Shown here: piece after piece, positions 56,117 to 63,992 of the stretch
Position numbering within the stretch: the first letter of the stretch is position 1
Layout of the letters: every line of letters begins with the position of its first letter
Source of the DNA: Dehalococcoidia bacterium
GTDB taxonomy: Bacteria > Chloroflexota > Dehalococcoidia > Lucifugimonadales > UBA1123
Direction: 5' to 3'
NCBI GenBank assembly: GCA_965242675.1
Contig: CBDESW010000004.1
Location: 301,862-365,861, forward strand
Length of the DNA stretch: 64,000 bases
Notes under the pieces: model-generated
Databases searched by the model: none
Told to the model about the DNA's origin: nothing
Seen by the model: the letters and a program-made list of their open reading frames with translations, nothing else
Translations under genes and position numbers: made by a program

Positions 56117-56236
56117 CTCTTGGTGGTTTGAGCGAGGCGGACCCACCCGTTCCCATCCCGAACACGGAAGTGAAACGCTTCAGCGCCGACGATACTGCAC
56201 TTGCAAGGGTGTGGGAAAATAGGTCACTGCCAGGGG
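56117..56236 (+). rRNA. rrf: 5S ribosomal RNA
   Basis: Universal 5S blocks are present: CCCACCCGTTCCCATCCCGAACACGGAAGTGAAACGC..AGCGCCGA.GATACT...GGGAAAATAGGTCACTGCCAGG. Helix I closes between CTTGGTGG (56119-56126) and CTGCCAGG (56227-56234), using G-U pairs. Confidence 0.9.
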
Positions 56237-57778: not shown

Positions 57779-60310
57779 ATGGCTAGTCGGTTCGAGAAAT
57801 TCTCCGAGAAGGCGCGCAGAGTGCTCTCTCTCGCCCAAGAAGAGGCGCAGCGCTTCAACCACACCTACATCGGCACGGAGCACATCCTGCTCGGCCTTGT
57901 CCGCGAAACGGACGGGGTAGCCGCCAAAGTGCTGGGCAATCTCGACGTGGAGCTGCCGAAAGTGCGCTCCGCCGTCGAGTTCATCATCGGCAGAGGCGAG
58001 CGCGCCGCCACCGGCGACATCGGGCTGACCCCAAGAGCCAAAAAGGTCATCGAGCTCGCCGTGGACGAAGCGCGGCGGCTCAACCACACCTACATCGGCA
58101 CCGAGCATCTGCTCATCGGGCTGATGCGCGAAGGCGAAGGCGTGCCGGCGGGCGTTCTCGAAAGCCTCGGGGTGACGCTTGACAAAGTGCGCTCCGAAAC
58201 CAGCCAGTTGCTGAGCCAAGGCGGACAGCGCTCCGAACGCGGCGGACGGACGCGCTCCAAGACGCCCACGCTGGACAATTTCGGCATCGACCTCACCAAA
58301 CTGGCGCGCGACGGCGAGCTCGACCCGACTGTGGGGCGCGACAAAGAAATCCAGCGCGTCACCCAGATACTCAGCCGCCGCCGAAAGAACAACCCCGTGC
58401 TGGTGGGCGAGCCGGGCGTGGGCAAGACAGCCATCGTCGAAGGGCTCGCCAAGCGCATCGTCGACAACGAAGTCCCCACCACGCTCACCGACAAGCGTCT
58501 GCTGACGCTCGACATGGGAGCGCTGATAGCCGGCACGAAGTATCGCGGCGAGTTCGAAGAGCGGCTCAAGAGAGTCGTGGCGGAAATCAAAGACTCCAAC
58601 TGCGTGCTGTTCATAGACGAAGTCCACACGATGATAGGCGCCGGCTCCGCCGAGGGCGCCGTGGACGCCGCCAACATCCTCAAGCCGTCCCTCGCCAGAG
58701 GCGACCTGCAGACGATAGGCGCGACCACGCTTGACGACTACCGCAAATACGTCGAGCGCGACCCGGCCCTGGAGCGCCGCTTCCAACCGGTGCGCGTGGA
58801 CGAGCCGAGCGCCGAAGAGACGGTCGAAATTCTCAGAGGCGTCAAGAAGCAGTACGAAGAGCATCACGACCTGGACATAACGGACGAGGCGATTCAGCAG
58901 GCGGCGACGCTCGCCTCGCGCTACATCGCCGACCGCTTCCTGCCCGACAAGGCGATAGACCTGATAGACGAAGCGGCGTCCCGCGTCCGCATCAACTCCA
59001 GCGCCGCCCCGGTGTCGGTGAAAGAGCTGGCGCGGATGCTCGACAGCGTCCGCAAAGAGAAAGACGAAGCCATAGCCGAGCGCGATTACGAATTCGCGGC
59101 GGAACTGCGCGACCGCGAAGCGAGCATGGCGTCAAAGCTGGAAGAGCTCGAAAAGAACTGGAAGGACGAGCGGGCGCAAGACAAGCCGCAGGTGACCGAA
59201 GAGGACATCGCCGAAGTCGTCAGCATGTGGACGTCCATCCCCGTGACGCGGCTGGCGGCCACCGAAACCGAGCGCCTCATCAACATGGAAGAATCCCTGC
59301 ACGAAAAGGTAATCGGGCAGGAAGAGCCGATAACCATGGTCTCCAAAGCCGTCCGCCGCGCGCGCTCCGGGCTGAAGAACCCGCGCCGCCCCACGGGCAT
59401 CTTCATGTTCCTCGGCCCCACCGGCGTGGGCAAAACCCTGCTGGTCCGCAAGCTGGCGGAGTTCCTGTTCGGCTCGGAGGACGCCCTGATACGCATCGAC
59501 ATGTCCGAGTTCATGGAGCGCCACTCGGTGGCGCGGCTGGTGGGAGCGCCGCCGGGCTACATCGGCTACGACGACGGCGGACAGCTCACCGAAGCGGTCA
59601 GGCGCAAGTCCTACAGCGTCATCCTGCTCGACGAGATCGAGAAGGCGCACCCCGAAGTGTTCAACATCCTGCTCCAGATATTCGACGACGGCCACTTGAC
59701 CGACTCGAAGGGGCGCAAAGTGGACTTCCGCAACACGATAGTGGTGATGACGTCCAACATCGGCTCCGACCTGATACGCCAAGACCGCTCCATCGGCTTC
59801 GCCGCCCGCTCCGGGCAGGGGCAGACGGACGACCAAGCCTACCAGCGCATGAAGACGAACGTCCTCGACGAGGTCAAGCGCTTCTTCCGCCCCGAATTCC
59901 TCAACCGCATAGACGGCAGCGTGGTGTTCCACCCGCTCAGCCGCGAGCATATGCACCGCATCATCCCCATCGAGCTGAAGGACGTCACGTCCAACCTCAT
60001 CGAAAAGGGGATCGATCTGAAGGTGACGGACGCGGCGAAGGACTGGATGGTCGACAAGGGCTACGACCCGATCTTCGGCGCCCGCCCGCTCCGCCGGGTC
60101 ATCCAAGACCACGTGGAGGACAAACTCTCCGACGCCATCCTGCGCGGCGACCTCGGACCCGCCGACACCGCCATCGTGGATATGGACGAAGAAGGCGAAG
60201 TCGTAGTCCGCTCCGAATCGCCCTTCGCCGACCTGATAGACGGCGGCGACGACGAGTCCGAAACGGAAATCGCCGAGCCGGAAGCGGAAGTCGCGGCGGC
60301 TACGACGTAG
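57779..60310 (+). CDS. clpC: ATP-dependent Clp protease ATP-binding subunit ClpC
   Basis: Duplicated Clp_N repeats ([13 protein letters not shown] and [13 protein letters not shown]). Walker A motifs GEPGVGKT and [11 protein letters not shown]-like motif [11 protein letters not shown]. ClpB/ClpC signature regions are also present. Confidence 0.93.
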
Positions 60311-60334
60311 GCGAGCGTCCGCGCAACCGATGCG

Positions 60335-60371
60335 AAAGCCCGCCGCGCGCCCGCCGGCGGGCTTTTCGTTT
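60335..60371 (+). terminator. Rho-independent terminator after clpC
   Basis: 10-bp perfect stem AAAGCCCGCC (60335-60344) / GGCGGGCTTT (60356-60365), an 11-nt loop, then TTCGTTT. Confidence 0.7.
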
Positions 60372-60471
60372 GGGGGGATATTTTCTATAATCGCAACGGC
60401 GCGTTCGGACGGGCTAACCGGCGAAACAATCCGGGCGCGGCGACGAAAGAATCTATGGGAGCGCAAACGAG

Positions 60472-62559
60472 ATGACCGTTCCGCAATTGGAATTCGGAAA
60501 CAACGCGGAGTTCGACCTGGACGACAAAACCGGGTTGCGGGTCGTCGACGCGTCGTTCCAGCGCGAAACGAAATTCGCGTGGTCGCTCTTCGACGGCTAC
60601 GATTCCATTCGGATACTCACGTACTCCGCCGGAATCGGCGCGATAGTCAGGTTGCTTGACAAGCACGAATTCGAGACTTTCGAGTGCGTCTTCGGATGCG
60701 AAACCACGCTCAACAGCCTGAAGGACATACTCGCCTTCCAGAAAGTCGCCGTCGGCGACACGCGCGCCGCCATAAAGAACCTCGCCGACCCAAGGCACGC
60801 CTTCATACTTGAACGGGTCAGGAGCGGGCAGGCGTCTTTTCGCGTTCTCAGAAAGCGGATAGCCCACTCCAAACTGTATCTGCTCGAAAACCGAGAAAGC
60901 GGCGATACGCGGGCGATAATCGGCTCGGCGAATCTTTCGGAAACCGCGTTCGGAGGCAAGCAGTCCGAGACGCTGGTCAAGTTCGACTGCGACCCCGATG
61001 CGTGGGCGCACTACTCCAACCAGTATAGAGAAGTGCGCGACAACGCTTCCGACCAAATCGAGTTGCCTCCGGAGCGCGTGGAAACCGCCGAAATCAAACT
61101 GCATGAAATCCCGGTCCTTAACCCGACGAACCACTCCACACTCGTGATAGACGGCATTTCGGGCGGCGACTCGCCAAACGGACGCCCTGTTCTCAACGTA
61201 AACGTCCCGACGCAGGCGGAACGCATAGAGAAGGTGAAAGTGGACATCATCCCGCCATCTATAAACCCCATCCTCCCGCCGTTTCGAGAGGGCGTTCAGC
61301 GCGTGACGCCGGACGCTCTCAGGAAAATCGCCAGAGAAAGCGTCCGCATCAAAGAAGTTCGCTCCGAGGAAGAAGCCGACCACCGCCGGTTTTCCATAGA
61401 CATAGGCGCGAAGAACGCGCTTTTGCTCGATAAGCCTTATTCCTTGTCGTTCGATGAGGCGAAAGCGCGTGAAGACGCCCGCTCGCTAGTGGATTACTTC
61501 GGCAACTACGAAGACGCTTTCGAGGGCGGGCTTGGGGTCGAGCGCCTGCAGCGCGACTACTTCATCCTCTGGTCGTGGCTATACTTCTCGCCGTTCATGT
61601 GCGACATGCGAAACATGGCGGGACACAGCGGGGACATCTTTCGGTATCCGTCGTTCGCCATCGTTTACGGCAAGCCGTCCTGCGGCAAATCCAGCCTCAT
61701 AGACACGCTCGTCACGTCCATGTTCGGCAAGCCGTACAACATAGACAAGCGGGACTTCACCAAAAGCAAGTTGCGCGGAATTCAGAGCGCGTTCAAGCGG
61801 TTTCCCGCCATTTTCGACGACATCGGAAAAGCCGCGATACGGAATCACGGAAGCGAAATCATAAAAGACGAAAACCCGCCGCCTGCGACGGAGTATCCCT
61901 GCTTCGCGCTCTCGATGAATCAGGAACTGAACGCATTTCCTGATGAACTGGTCAAGCGCAGTCTGATGGTCTATACGACGACGGCGCTTCCTTCCTACAA
62001 AGAAGACCGCCGCCACGAGCTCCACATGGAAATCCAGCGCGTCCGCCGTTCGCTCAGCGACAACTTCTATCGGGAATATCTGTCGCGCGCCATAGACGAG
62101 CTTGCCCTTCTAAGGGAAAGCGGAAACCCGCTGGTCGGCGACTGGCTGGAGTTTTCTTCGACCATCCTGAGCGGGATGATAGACGCCAAAACCGAAGGCG
62201 AGCCGCCGAAGTGGAGCGCGCCGGCGACTTGGAACGAATACGCCGACAAGCGGCATGACCGAGTGAAAACCCAGCTCGAAAATCTCTTGCGCCCCGCGCG
62301 GCGAATCAAAAAAGAGGGTGAGCGCGAAGAGGGTTGGATTCTCGAAGGCGACAAAGTAATCGTCATGGAGCGGACGGACGCTTTCGGGCGGCGCGGGTTC
62401 GATTGGGAGAACGTCCCGTCCACCCTGATTGACGAAAACATAAGCGTGGGAAGCCGGACGGTTCTCAACCGCCGCGAGCTAGAGGAGTTTCTCGGAGCGC
62501 GGCTTGTCGAAGGCGGCGTTTCCGGTTGGGTCGGCAAACTGTTCAGGCTTGGCGGATAG
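60472..62559 (+). CDS. PLD-like (HKD) nuclease domain fused to a P-loop NTPase (SF3/D5-like motif spacing); unnamed family
   Basis: HKD motif RIAHSKLYLLEN...RAIIGSANLSETAF (nt about 60865-60936). Walker A YGKPSCGKSS (61669-61695), Walker B-like FPAIFDD (about 61807-61821), motif-C-like FALSMN (about 61906-61920). TATAAT at 60386-60391 lies upstream. The stop is 11 nt before the radA ATG. Confidence 0.75.
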   Translation: MTVPQLEFGNNAEFDLDDKTGLRVVDASFQRETKFAWSLFDGYDSIRILTYSAGIGAIVRLLDKHEFETFECVFGCETTLNSLKDILAFQKVAVGDTRAAIKNLADPRHAFILERVRSGQASFRVLRKRIAHSKLYLLENRESGDTRAIIGSANLSETAFGGKQSETLVKFDCDPDAWAHYSNQYREVRDNASDQIELPPERVETAEIKLHEIPVLNPTNHSTLVIDGISGGDSPNGRPVLNVNVPTQAERIEKVKVDIIPPSINPILPPFREGVQRVTPDALRKIARESVRIKEVRSEEEADHRRFSIDIGAKNALLLDKPYSLSFDEAKAREDARSLVDYFGNYEDAFEGGLGVERLQRDYFILWSWLYFSPFMCDMRNMAGHSGDIFRYPSFAIVYGKPSCGKSSLIDTLVTSMFGKPYNIDKRDFTKSKLRGIQSAFKRFPAIFDDIGKAAIRNHGSEIIKDENPPPATEYPCFALSMNQELNAFPDELVKRSLMVYTTTALPSYKEDRRHELHMEIQRVRRSLSDNFYREYLSRAIDELALLRESGNPLVGDWLEFSSTILSGMIDAKTEGEPPKWSAPATWNEYADKRHDRVKTQLENLLRPARRIKKEGEREEGWILEGDKVIVMERTDAFGRRGFDWENVPSTLIDENISVGSRTVLNRRELEEFLGARLVEGGVSGWVGKLFRLGG

Positions 62560-62570
62560 GCGGCGTCATC

Positions 62571-63992
62571 ATGCCCAGAAAATCCAAAACCGTTTTCATG
62601 TGCGATTCCTGCGGCGCGGAGTCGGCGCGGTGGGAGGGGCGGTGCCGCGCTTGCGGCGAGTGGAACACGCTCGCCGAGTTCCGCGCCCCGGCGGCGTCTT
62701 CGGCGTCCGCGCGCGGCGGCGGCGGGACTTGGGCGGGGGACGCGCCGGCGGAAGCCGTCCGTCTGCGCGACGTCTCCGGCGAAGAGCGCGAGCGGATGGC
62801 GTTCAGCTCCGCCGAGCTGAACCGCGTACTCGGCGGCGGCATGGTCGCCGGGTCGGTCTCGCTGGTCGCCGGCGACCCCGGAATCGGCAAATCCACCCTG
62901 CTTCTGAGCGCGGCGGCGGACGCGGCGCGGCATGGCGCGGTCATCTACGTCAGCGGAGAAGAATCCGCCGCCCAAGTCAAGCTCCGCGCCGACCGCATGG
63001 GAATAGCCGCCGACGACCTCTATCTGCTCCCCGCTACCAATCTGTCGGACGTTCTGGCGCGGCTCGACGCGCTCTCGCCGACGCTGGCGGTGGTGGATTC
63101 CATTCAGACGCTGGCGGACGACGCGGTTTCGTCCGAAGCCGGCAGCGTGGCGCAAATCCGCGAGTGCGCGCGCCAATTGACACGCTGGGCGAAAACATCA
63201 GGCGGCTCCGTGGTCATGACCGGACACGTAACCAAAGGCGGCGACATAGCCGGACCTCGCATCCTCGAGCATGTCGTCGACGTCGTTCTGCATCTGGAAG
63301 GCGACCCTGTGAGCGCCTTCCGCCTGTTGCGCTCGGTCAAAAACCGTTTCGGCTCCACGAACGAAGTGGGCATTTACGAGATGAGCGAGCGCGGGCTGAC
63401 GGACGTCGCCGACCCGTCCGAGCGCCTCATCTCCGAGCGCGCGGACGGCGCGGTGGGCGCGATAGTCGTCCCCGCGATGGAGGGGACGCGCCCGCTGCTG
63501 GTGGAGATGCAGGCGCTGACGAACCCATCGCTGCTGCCCGCGCCGCGCCGCGTGGCGTCGGGGGTGGACTACAACCGCCTGCTGCTGGTGTGCGCCGTGC
63601 TGACACGCCGAGCGGGGCTGTCGCTGGCGAATCAGGACGTCATCGTGAACGTCGCCGGCGGCGTCCGCGTATCGGAGCCGGCGGCGGATTTGGCGATGGC
63701 GCTCGCCATCGTCTCGTCCGTCCGCGACGTGCCGATTAGGGCGGGGACGGCGGCGATAGGCGAGGTGGGATTGGGCGGCGAGACGCGCTCGGCGGCGCAG
63801 ATCGAGCGGCGCGCGAACGAAGCGGGCAGGCTGGGGCTTCGCAGATTCCTCGCGCCGGCGTCCGCCGACTTCCGCGCGCCCGAAGGCATCGAGATAGTGA
63901 AGGCGGCGTCTCTGCGGGACGCCATAGGCGCGGCGCTGGCGTCCCCAAGACGGGCGCGGGCGCGCGAAACGGCGGCGGAGTTCGCAAGTTGA
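62571..63992 (+). CDS. radA: DNA repair protein RadA (Sms)
   Basis: ATG at 62571. Zinc ribbon CDSCGAESARWEGRCRACGEW, Walker A GDPGIGKST, the KNRFG motif (VKNRFGSTNEVG), and a Lon-like C-terminal domain. Confidence 0.93.
   Translation: MPRKSKTVFMCDSCGAESARWEGRCRACGEWNTLAEFRAPAASSASARGGGGTWAGDAPAEAVRLRDVSGEERERMAFSSAELNRVLGGGMVAGSVSLVAGDPGIGKSTLLLSAAADAARHGAVIYVSGEESAAQVKLRADRMGIAADDLYLLPATNLSDVLARLDALSPTLAVVDSIQTLADDAVSSEAGSVAQIRECARQLTRWAKTSGGSVVMTGHVTKGGDIAGPRILEHVVDVVLHLEGDPVSAFRLLRSVKNRFGSTNEVGIYEMSERGLTDVADPSERLISERADGAVGAIVVPAMEGTRPLLVEMQALTNPSLLPAPRRVASGVDYNRLLLVCAVLTRRAGLSLANQDVIVNVAGGVRVSEPAADLAMALAIVSSVRDVPIRAGTAAIGEVGLGGETRSAAQIERRANEAGRLGLRRFLAPASADFRAPEGIEIVKAASLRDAIGAALASPRRARARETAAEFAS

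Follow-up and report, generated by a model that had tools for sequence, protein, structure and literature searches.

The window analyzed here, a 64,000-nucleotide stretch of contig CBDESW010000004.1 from a Dehalococcoidia bacterium, carries near its right end a gene that we call the PLD-ATPase gene, which lies between clpC and radA and encodes a restriction-type phospholipase D (PLD) nuclease fused to an AAA+ module like those of superfamily 3 (SF3) and MCM helicases (Table 1). The gene stops 11 nt before the radA start codon, as the original prediction (made from the sequence alone) had stated, and a terminator scan found no terminator between the two genes; they are probably co-transcribed, both here and in the orthologous locus L001, in which RadA domain matches are also present. 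On the other side, the clean clpC terminator that had been predicted is indeed there, and an analogous terminator-like hairpin follows clpC in three relatives (L087, L088 and L090) that lack the PLD-ATPase gene at this site. This terminator is native to the clpC-radA junction and sets the left limit of the insertion. The gene had also been credited with its own TATAAT box; the box exists and the sequence around it, TTCTATAAT, is kept in the L001 orthologue, but a sigma-70 consensus scan called no full promoter in front of the gene because no −35 hexamer was matched.

That the gene is a one-gene insertion into a conserved junction, as was proposed, is clear from its relatives. In the nearest RadA relatives with usable upstream sequence, which are the same L087, L088 and L090 (RadA 51–58% and ClpC 70–75% identical), clpC lies immediately 5' of radA with ~100–330 nt between them; since these junctions are empty, the 2.26-kb interval in the window represents an insertion, lodged between radA and the native terminator of clpC. 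This is not a recent insertion, because L001 carries an 84.8%-identical orthologue in the same site under purifying selection, and the insertion is older than the split of the window and L001 lineages. Between these two genomes dN/dS is 0.15 for the PLD-ATPase gene, compared with 0.10, 0.10 and 0.21 for the S1 gene, clpC and radA, respectively, so the gene is under purifying selection at this site. Its dS in the same genome pair (window 60472–62559 against L001 8001–10088) is 0.61, and those of S1, clpC and radA are 0.30–0.44; weaker codon bias could account for the raised value, as could recombination or gene replacement at this locus.

The lower G+C content that had been estimated from a few lines of the gene holds over its whole length: the gene is at 0.577, whereas the window as a whole has 0.642, clpC 0.639 and radA 0.70. 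At third codon positions (GC3) the gene is at 0.74 and its neighbours S1, clpC and radA are at 0.83–0.86, a shortfall of ~0.09–0.12 in the window and ~0.14–0.19 in L001. The deficit is partly a family-wide trait, in that the gene has a lower G+C than its flanks in 62 of 80 loci (mean 3.1 points lower). An effect of amino acid composition alone was considered as the cause; it is partly true, given the family-wide trend, but GC3 is also low in the window and in L001.

Table 1. Features of the PLD-ATPase gene and its surroundings, with one integrative element of relatives (window positions unless a locus is named)
Feature	Position	Strand	Remarks
clpC	57779..60310	+	left neighbour of PLD-ATPase gene
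clpC intrinsic terminator	60335..60372	+	hairpin 60335-60365, perfect 11-nt arms, then T-run (inverted-repeat search and terminator scan)
TATAAT, -10-like box	60386..60391	+	assigned to the PLD-ATPase gene's own transcription unit
Shine-Dalgarno-like GGGAG	60457..60461	+	10 nt 5' of ATG
PLD-ATPase open reading frame	60472..62559	+	695 amino acids, complete; TAG stop ends at 62559
PLD (single-HKD) nuclease domain	60520..61161	+	residues ~17-230; RE_NgoFVII match, R.NgoAVII fold
HKD catalytic motif H132-x-K134 ... G151-S-A-N154	60865-60939	+	from translation
pre-ATPase N-domain	61207..61536	+	residues ~246-355, helices and small beta-sheet; from pLDDT and secondary structure
AAA+ ATPase core	61537..62061	+	residues ~356-530; from invariant columns and Foldseek
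Walker A (K406)	61666-61692	+	YGKPSCGKSS
Walker B (D449/D450)	61807-61821	+	AIFDD
sensor-1 strand (N483)	61903-61920	+	FALSMN
candidate arginine finger R496	61957-61959	+	invariant; 13 residues after N483; role proposed from position alone
C-terminal helical bundle and small beta-rich domain	62062..62556	+	residues ~531-695; pLDDT >90 to about residue 680
radA	62571..63992	+	right flank of insertion; ATG at 62571; reaches window end
11.4-kb integrative element	L164 2657-14057; L165 2657-14058		boundaries from two-genome comparison

A PLD nuclease joined to an AAA+ module

All of the motifs on which the original prediction was built (AHSKLYLLEN...IIGSANLS, YGKPSCGKSS, AIFDD and FALSMN) are present in the translation. 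The first supplies H132, K134, S152 and N154 in the HKD form H132-S-K134-LYLL-E139 ... G151-S152-A-N154, and the Walker A motif, with its lysine K406 274 amino acids beyond H132, begins a motif layout of the SF3 type (G400-KPSC-G405-K406-S407, F448-D449-D450 and S481-M-N483), in which Walker B follows Walker A by some 40–45 residues and the motif C/sensor-1 Asn comes some 30 residues later. The Pfam family RE_NgoFVII (PF09565) matches residues 124–192 with 30.3 bits (gathering cut-off 23.8; E=3.1e-7), and in a profile search the family scored 0.048 against NucT (6EHI). This above-threshold match, the R.NgoAVII fold of the modelled domain and the invariance of the catalytic residues (both below) bear out the proposed fusion of an HKD nuclease to a P-loop ATPase. 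The P-loop itself obtains weak generic matches in Pfam, including one to the SF3 family RNA_helicase (E=0.12, residues 397–424); membership in the curated SF3 families (DUF927, Pox_D5, RNA_helicase and others) was not reached in the Pfam scan, and profile similarity to the Cch helicase (5DGK, E=0.08) is confined to the P-loop region. The Pfam copy scanned contained no match for the C-terminal region (residues ~531–695), and the protein has no SF2 (helicase superfamily 2) or DUF3427 match in Pfam.

An AlphaFold2 model of the full protein, built on a 77-sequence alignment, has a mean pLDDT (predicted local distance difference test) of 88 and a pTM (predicted template modelling score) of 0.71, and linkers of low confidence at residues 231–245 and 295–302 flank or interrupt the N-domain region. 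Its Foldseek matches in the PDB are Cch (5DGK, 2e-6), the R.NgoAVII PLD domain (4RCT_A, 3.5e-5, probability 1.00) and SauUSI (7CLG_B, 1.3e-3); among viral models (BFVD), DUF927/D5-type primase-helicases lead, with polyomavirus large-T and parvovirus NS1 also prominent. Residues 246–695 modelled alone give a pLDDT of 90.4 and a pTM of 0.84, and here Cch is the top match (1e-6 over 421 columns, covering most of the model), followed by SV40/JCV large-T, the African swine fever virus primase-helicase, vaccinia D5 and MCM (1N25 at 5.5e-4, 5J40 at 7.9e-4, 8WW8 at 1.7e-3, 8HWC at 2.7e-3 and MCM 6WGI at 3.7e-3), with generic AAA+ proteins (proteasome, clamp loader, DnaA) interleaved at similar scores from rank 4 and TM-scores of ~0.2–0.3. 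The suggestion that the ATPase is of the SF3/D5 type is supported, then, by the modelled fold, for which Cch, large-T and D5 stand at the top, but not by sequence profiles.

One part of the original prediction needs qualifying. The ~230 amino acids between the domains and the last ~190 amino acids, which had matched nothing recognizable, are parts of a conserved and confidently folded helicase-like module and not spacer; in the family alignment the N-domain is conserved along its length, and the C-terminal region is conserved as well. The C-terminal domain is a candidate for a lid combined with a DNA-binding or specificity module.

Conservation, neighbours and movement of the family

A word-indexed search returned >1000 related proteins. 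The top 120 are full-length (~685 amino acids) and 63–69% identical to the window protein, save two at 96% (P0001) and 84% (P0002), and mean column identity among 21 close relatives is 80%. An exhaustive HMMER search extended the family to 770 representatives at 50% clustering (E≤1e-3), 189 of them at E≤1e-30, and many are full-length with 25–45% identity. Precomputed Pfam annotation of full-length relatives, including P0001 and P0002, assigns them the pair PF09565 and PF27394 ("Aq_aa27"), and the family is thus already catalogued, as the uncharacterized Pfam family PF27394. It belongs to no named defence system, in keeping with the original prediction, which could not assign the domain combination to one. 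We found no paper on PF27394, and the names that NCBI gives to the relatives go no further than "phospholipase D family protein" or "restriction endonuclease PLD domain-containing protein". PADLOC v2 contains no full-length match to the window protein: its best score is to ZacB (E=1.4e-4), over the HKD motif only (residues 120–174), followed by mad8 (0.02) and REase_II (0.058). NCBIfam, PHROGs and a single-sequence PDB search likewise gave no match for the window protein, and the GenBank phage collection gave none.

In an alignment of 77 family members, some just 21% identical to the window protein, H132, K134, S152, N154, E166, G400, G405, K406, N483 and R496 are invariant in every member, and D450 is conserved in at least 90%. 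Because these catalytic columns do not vary, nuclease and ATPase are, to judge from the alignment, both maintained as active enzymes. Members of one divergent sub-family (P0153 and P0175; also P0158, P0161 and P0179; ~711–765 amino acids) have an extra HTH_17 domain of the excisionase/MerR type in front of the PLD domain; for this variant the one context retrieved (L168 154–2451) is on a short contig, among small genes that match nothing known.

All-versus-all clustering of the open reading frames from 84 loci revealed no conserved partner gene, the commonest neighbour cluster being present in just 12 of the 84. Many copies stand alone at junctions of housekeeping genes: 9 nt after uvrA (L002/L006), between guaA and purD (L034/L049), upstream of dnaX (L007) and near purC (L003 group), and a distant low-GC family member sits after obg-proB. 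The other neighbours across lineages are mostly metabolic or unrelated (RtcB, Rieske proteins and transporters among them), and linkage to radA is limited to the window and L001. When flanks (400 nt upstream, 300 nt downstream) were compared by all-versus-all blastn, synteny was seen within sub-clades only, and no terminal repeats or transposon-like ends were found at the copies of the gene. A promoter/leader of 50–190 nt does move with the open reading frame between loci of differing neighbours, for example TTGCATTATACTATCGGCAC, and other sub-clades have their own conserved −10 and leader across differing contexts. One such promoter/leader, CTTGCATTATACTATCGGCAC(G/A)GGAGG, lies ~60 nt upstream of the gene and is strongly conserved in L003, L008, L014, L023, L041, L010 and L037, whose upstream neighbours differ; L057 has a 26-nt 96% match to a leader of this CTTGCATTATACTATCGGCAC type ~200 nt further upstream. 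This leader could be a promoter together with a regulator-binding site.

The close relatives found in species-representative genomes come from Dehalococcoidia, other Chloroflexota (including SAR202 and Caldilineaceae) and metagenome-assembled genomes (MAGs) of Latescibacterota. The gene forms three separate clades in Latescibacterota, and the L021 copy there is 89% identical to the Chloroflexota copy L039, which, unless a bin label is wrong, shows transfer between these phyla. Bin names such as RHO1/RHO3, COS2, SB0662 and Plut (L041, L043, L047, L060, L063, L073 and others) look like sponge or coral holobiont labels; if this reading is right, Chloroflexota and Latescibacterota that live as sponge symbionts may be rich in members of the family.

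Carriage by mobile DNA is seen in several forms. Distant full-length relatives (~24% identity) are present on Acetobacter and Komagataeibacter plasmids amid VapBC, BrnTA, HicAB and RelE modules, in the Komagataeibacter case ~5.6 kb from an annotated replication initiator gene, and a divergent branch occurs on ~50 IMG/VR contigs, one of which (L170) has ParA/ParB ~1.4 kb upstream. In six loci the PLD-ATPase gene is followed by a small gene (a ribbon-helix-helix, or RHH, gene in the three inspected closely) and then a large serine recombinase. Two genomes with an identical protein (P0035) share an 11,402-bp block of 99.86% identity between unrelated flanks (L164 and L165, Table 1), which on this sequence comparison is demonstrably a mobile element. 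Its order is unknown genes, an 842-amino-acid protein with a weak mad8-like P-loop match, Replic_Relax, PLD-ATPase, RHH and large serine recombinase, and the end with the recombinase has an imperfect repeat of 76 bp (L164 13982–14057 against L165 14098–14172). A 107-nt stretch inside the RHH gene downstream of the PLD-ATPase gene (L164 12251–12357) recurs with 84% identity upstream of the PLD-ATPase gene in L166 (9717–9822), so that RHH-related sequence brackets the gene there. In the window and in the L164 and L166 elements there are no iterons or tandem repeats near the gene beyond the clpC terminator. Vertical inheritance as a clade-specific housekeeping gene was considered and rejected in view of the empty sites, the near-identity across phyla and the carriage by plasmids and integrative elements. 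The gene is autonomous, mobile and kept under purifying selection.

A subset of loci does have defence genes nearby; many others are in the housekeeping junctions described above. In L167 (16463–18345) a complete Septu pair lies just past the serine recombinase (PtuA 1e-149, PtuB 2e-56); this locus also has an RHH-PIN pair directly 3' of the PLD-ATPase gene and an IS21 copy (rve and IstB) upstream. In five Latescibacterota loci (the L077–L082 group) a type I methyltransferase gene (2e-254 for that of L078) lies downstream of the PLD-ATPase gene. The HsdM start is no more than ~200 nt downstream in L078, L080, L081 and L082 (span 4394–10135 in L078), a gene for a Schlafen/AlbA_2 and HATPase_c_4 protein overlaps the PLD-ATPase start by 4 nt in L077, L078, L080 and L081, and no obvious long HsdR reading frame follows HsdM within these loci; Schlafen, PLD-ATPase and HsdM may form a clade-specific multi-gene arrangement. 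L166 has REase-ARP and a CapP-like peptidase near the gene. Finally, a 1703-amino-acid fusion of a DpdF-like DEAD helicase (4.9e-115) with a GajB/UvrD-like helicase is encoded at L010 478–5586 and also near the gene in L030, L037, L052 and L057; adjoining the PLD-ATPase gene as it does in several Chloroflexota, it is an unusual double-helicase protein of defence type in its own right.

Relationship to known nucleases and helicases

PLD nucleases with ATP-dependent motors are established restriction effectors, the examples being SauUSI (PMC12191111), MtsD of MANTIS (bioRxiv 10.64898/2026.09.23.753747) and PbeA of PbeABCD (PMC10853773). The Type IV enzyme SauUSI (PDB 7CLG) is, like the window protein, a single polypeptide with an N-terminal single-HKD PLD domain of the BfiI/NgoFVII type, a central NTP motor and an extra C-terminal domain, and neither has a cognate methyltransferase. 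On the other hand, SauUSI is driven by an SF2 helicase that works as a dimer, whereas the window motor is SF3/MCM-like AAA+ and expected to form a ring, and the DUF3427/SRA-like target-recognition domain of SauUSI was not detected in the window protein by Pfam. MtsD and PbeA resemble the window protein in coupling an HKD nuclease to an ATPase motor as a restriction effector, but theirs are SF2 motors in multi-gene systems with methyltransferase or ABC-ATPase partners, while the window family has no conserved partner. In the papers that we found on END nucleases, MANTIS and Dnd/Pbe, the PLD/HKD nucleases are joined to other domains, and the motor-coupled ones among them use SF2 helicases; a PLD plus SF3-like architecture is not described in these papers. 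Mokosh type II, which pairs PLD with an SF1-type helicase and had been set apart by the original prediction, is not matched over its full length by the window protein in PADLOC v2.

The nuclease domain shares its fold and its Pfam family (PF09565) with R.NgoAVII, NgoFVII and BfiI (4RCT, 2C1L). They possess a B3-like DNA-binding domain and work with a cognate methyltransferase; in the window protein the NTPase is fused and of another class, and no methyltransferase is linked to it. NgoAVII and CglI need a separate NTPase, the N-protein, for cleavage, which would give the coupling of a PLD nuclease to an NTPase a precedent. McrBC provides the nearest functional analogy for a restriction enzyme powered by an AAA+ motor: its AAA+ NTPase forms a ring and powers a nuclease that attacks modified foreign DNA, with no methyltransferase involved. 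McrBC differs in having two subunits, an NTPase of the GTP-specific McrB clade and a nuclease of the PD-(D/E)xK type, and the profile and fold searches that were run brought up nothing similar to it.

SF3/MCM-like ring helicases are used by viruses, plasmids and SCCmec for replication. The SCCmec Cch helicase (5DGK), the Rep proteins of staphylococcal pathogenicity islands (SaPI) and D5/DUF927-type SF3 proteins resemble the window protein in the fold of residues 246–695, in the layout of P-loop, Walker B, sensor-1 Asn and Arg, and in their association with mobile elements; the large serine recombinases that adjoin the gene in six loci also recall the position of cch near ccrAB. Cch differs in having no nuclease domain, and its similarity to the window protein is limited to E=0.08 in profile and TM-scores of ~0.3 in structure. 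Unlike an SCC-type Cch module, moreover, the window has no recombinase, SSB (single-strand binding protein) or primase partner, or iterons, and most family copies are outside any element.

Possible roles

We think it about an even bet (probability roughly 0.5) that the PLD-ATPase protein is a stand-alone, ATP-driven PLD nuclease that acts in defence or in conflict between genetic elements, and that it has been spread by mobile elements and retained by its hosts. The ATPase would assemble as a ring, probably a hexamer as in Cch, large-T and D5, and would load on, or translocate along, DNA with ATP, so that the N-terminal PLD domains could pair and cut the DNA engaged by the motor; pairing is expected, as a single-HKD nuclease completes its one active site only as a dimer. 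Such a mechanism follows the pattern of SauUSI, MtsD and PbeA and, by analogy, of McrBC. With neither a cognate methyltransferase nor a conserved partner gene, the protein itself would have to tell self from non-self. Most likely, either the conserved C-terminal domain would recognize a DNA modification or structure, in the manner of Type IV enzymes, or loading would be restricted to the replication or transfer intermediates of an invader. The biological role would then be defence against phages and plasmids, or competition among mobile elements.

Autonomy, in favour of this reading, is indicated by the absence of any neighbour cluster in more than 12 of the 84 loci, and mobility by the empty sites, the gene's own promoter/leader, its low GC3, the 89% identity across phyla, the L164/L165 element and the plasmid-borne copies. 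The defensive role that the original prediction had proposed is plausible from domain logic, from this mobility and from the neighbours in a subset of genomes. Several observations weigh against it. PADLOC, NCBIfam and PHROGs contain no full-length match; many loci, that of the window included, are ordinary housekeeping junctions and not defence islands; the protein is conserved to a degree unusual for a defence gene (~65–68% identity over the full length in >100 clusters, with a column mean of 80%); the sparing of self-DNA is not explained by any methyltransferase or immunity partner; the nearest relatives of the ATPase are replicative helicases of mobile elements and not restriction motors; and ring assembly, translocation and PLD dimerization are all steps that we infer.

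The main alternative, suggested by the kinship of the ATPase, is a function in replication or maintenance of a mobile element. The protein would be a self-loading helicase like Cch or SaPI Rep, its PLD domain would nick the element's origin in place of the HUH domain of Rep-SF3 initiators or of the primase of D5-type proteins, and copies that stand alone on chromosomes would be left over from elements or domesticated from them. Cch and Cch2 are described as distant homologues of self-loading replication initiators, and their operons are followed by large serine recombinase genes (PMC7581432), an arrangement paralleled by the six loci in which PLD-ATPase, small gene and large serine recombinase follow one another as in cch-ccrAB (PMC7581432). 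Cch is also the top structural match, ahead of large-T, the D5-type primase-helicases and parvovirus NS1; one serine recombinase element (L164/L165) is demonstrably mobile, some members carry the N-terminal HTH_17 domain, and ParA/ParB are close by in L170. We nevertheless consider such a role unlikely. Most copies, including that of the window, are solitary, without recombinase, primase, SSB or element, yet they are full-length, intact and under purifying selection; neither in the window nor in the elements do iteron-like repeats adjoin the gene; the carrier plasmids have replicon assignments of their own, with the gene amid toxin-antitoxin cargo and, in Komagataeibacter, at a distance from the initiator gene; the L164 element already has a Replic_Relax protein; and no sequence profile links the protein to the DUF927 or D5 families. 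A bolder and still less probable version makes the fusion of HKD and SF3 domains a new class of replication or mobilization initiator, in which the PLD nickase takes the place of the HUH domain and the protein loads its own ring helicase at the nick, to drive the replication or transfer of small serine recombinase elements and plasmids. We keep it in mind because the nearest structural relatives of the ATPase are all self-loading replicative helicases of mobile elements, one sub-clade is linked to large serine recombinases and HTH_17 variants exist. The covalent phosphohistidine intermediate could in principle be resolved by strand transfer, and in the extreme case the protein could promote its own spread, as a single gene, into intergenic junctions.

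The short distance to radA had left room for an accessory role in host DNA repair or replication restart, as a helicase-nuclease working with RadA, UvrA or the replisome. Such a role would explain the 11-nt spacing, and it would accord with the likely co-transcription with radA in the window and L001, the start 9 nt after uvrA in L002/L006, the place upstream of dnaX in L007, and the strong purifying selection and high conservation. A role tied to radA fails because that linkage is confined to the window and L001; elsewhere the neighbours differ in nearly every lineage and are mostly metabolic or unrelated (guaA/purD, purC, RtcB, Rieske, transporters, obg-proB). A host repair gene would also not be expected to have a patchy distribution with cross-phylum transfer, to be missing from the clpC-radA junction of the nearest relatives, to be found on plasmids and integrative elements, or to have a composition atypical of its host, and we regard this explanation as very improbable. 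Slightly less probable even than that is a purely selfish gene of no benefit to the host, either a free-standing nuclease of the homing type that copies itself into intergenic junctions or an addiction-type gene. Tight units of promoter and open reading frame in many different conserved-gene junctions, a 5' region that moves along with the reading frame and evident horizontal spread would all fit; the lack of terminal repeats or conserved ends past the promoter/leader, the typical identity of ~65% between copies in different genomes (and so no sign of recent bursts), the stable inheritance at a single site, seen in the window and L001 as well as in further syntenic sub-clades, and an ATP-driven motor, which homing enzymes are not known to have, do not. 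We know of no PLD-family homing endonuclease.

Whichever role proves correct, a PLD nuclease with an ATP motor is already known as a restriction design, and what is new here is a ring-type, SF3/Cch-like motor in a stand-alone gene, since all the characterized PLD-motor nucleases that we found have SF2 helicases, in contrast to the SF3/MCM-like AAA+ module of this family. Should the protein serve in defence, it would represent a restriction system of a new mechanistic kind, with a ring motor encoded by a single gene; should it initiate replication, it would be a new way for mobile elements to combine nuclease and helicase in copying themselves. With >1000 close clusters and, at 50% clustering, 770 representatives, the family is abundant; it is widespread among MAGs of both Chloroflexota and Latescibacterota, occurs on plasmids and is missed by PADLOC v2. 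The protein itself is compact and strongly conserved, its model is of high confidence and its catalytic residues are clear.

A minor feature of the window lies some distance to the left of this gene. Between the ftsZ region and the S1 gene there is a lone 5S rRNA gene (56119–56235, + strand; Rfam, 86 bits), and because no 16S or 23S rRNA gene (nor any tRNA gene) was found across the 64-kb window, it appears to be unlinked from an rRNA operon.

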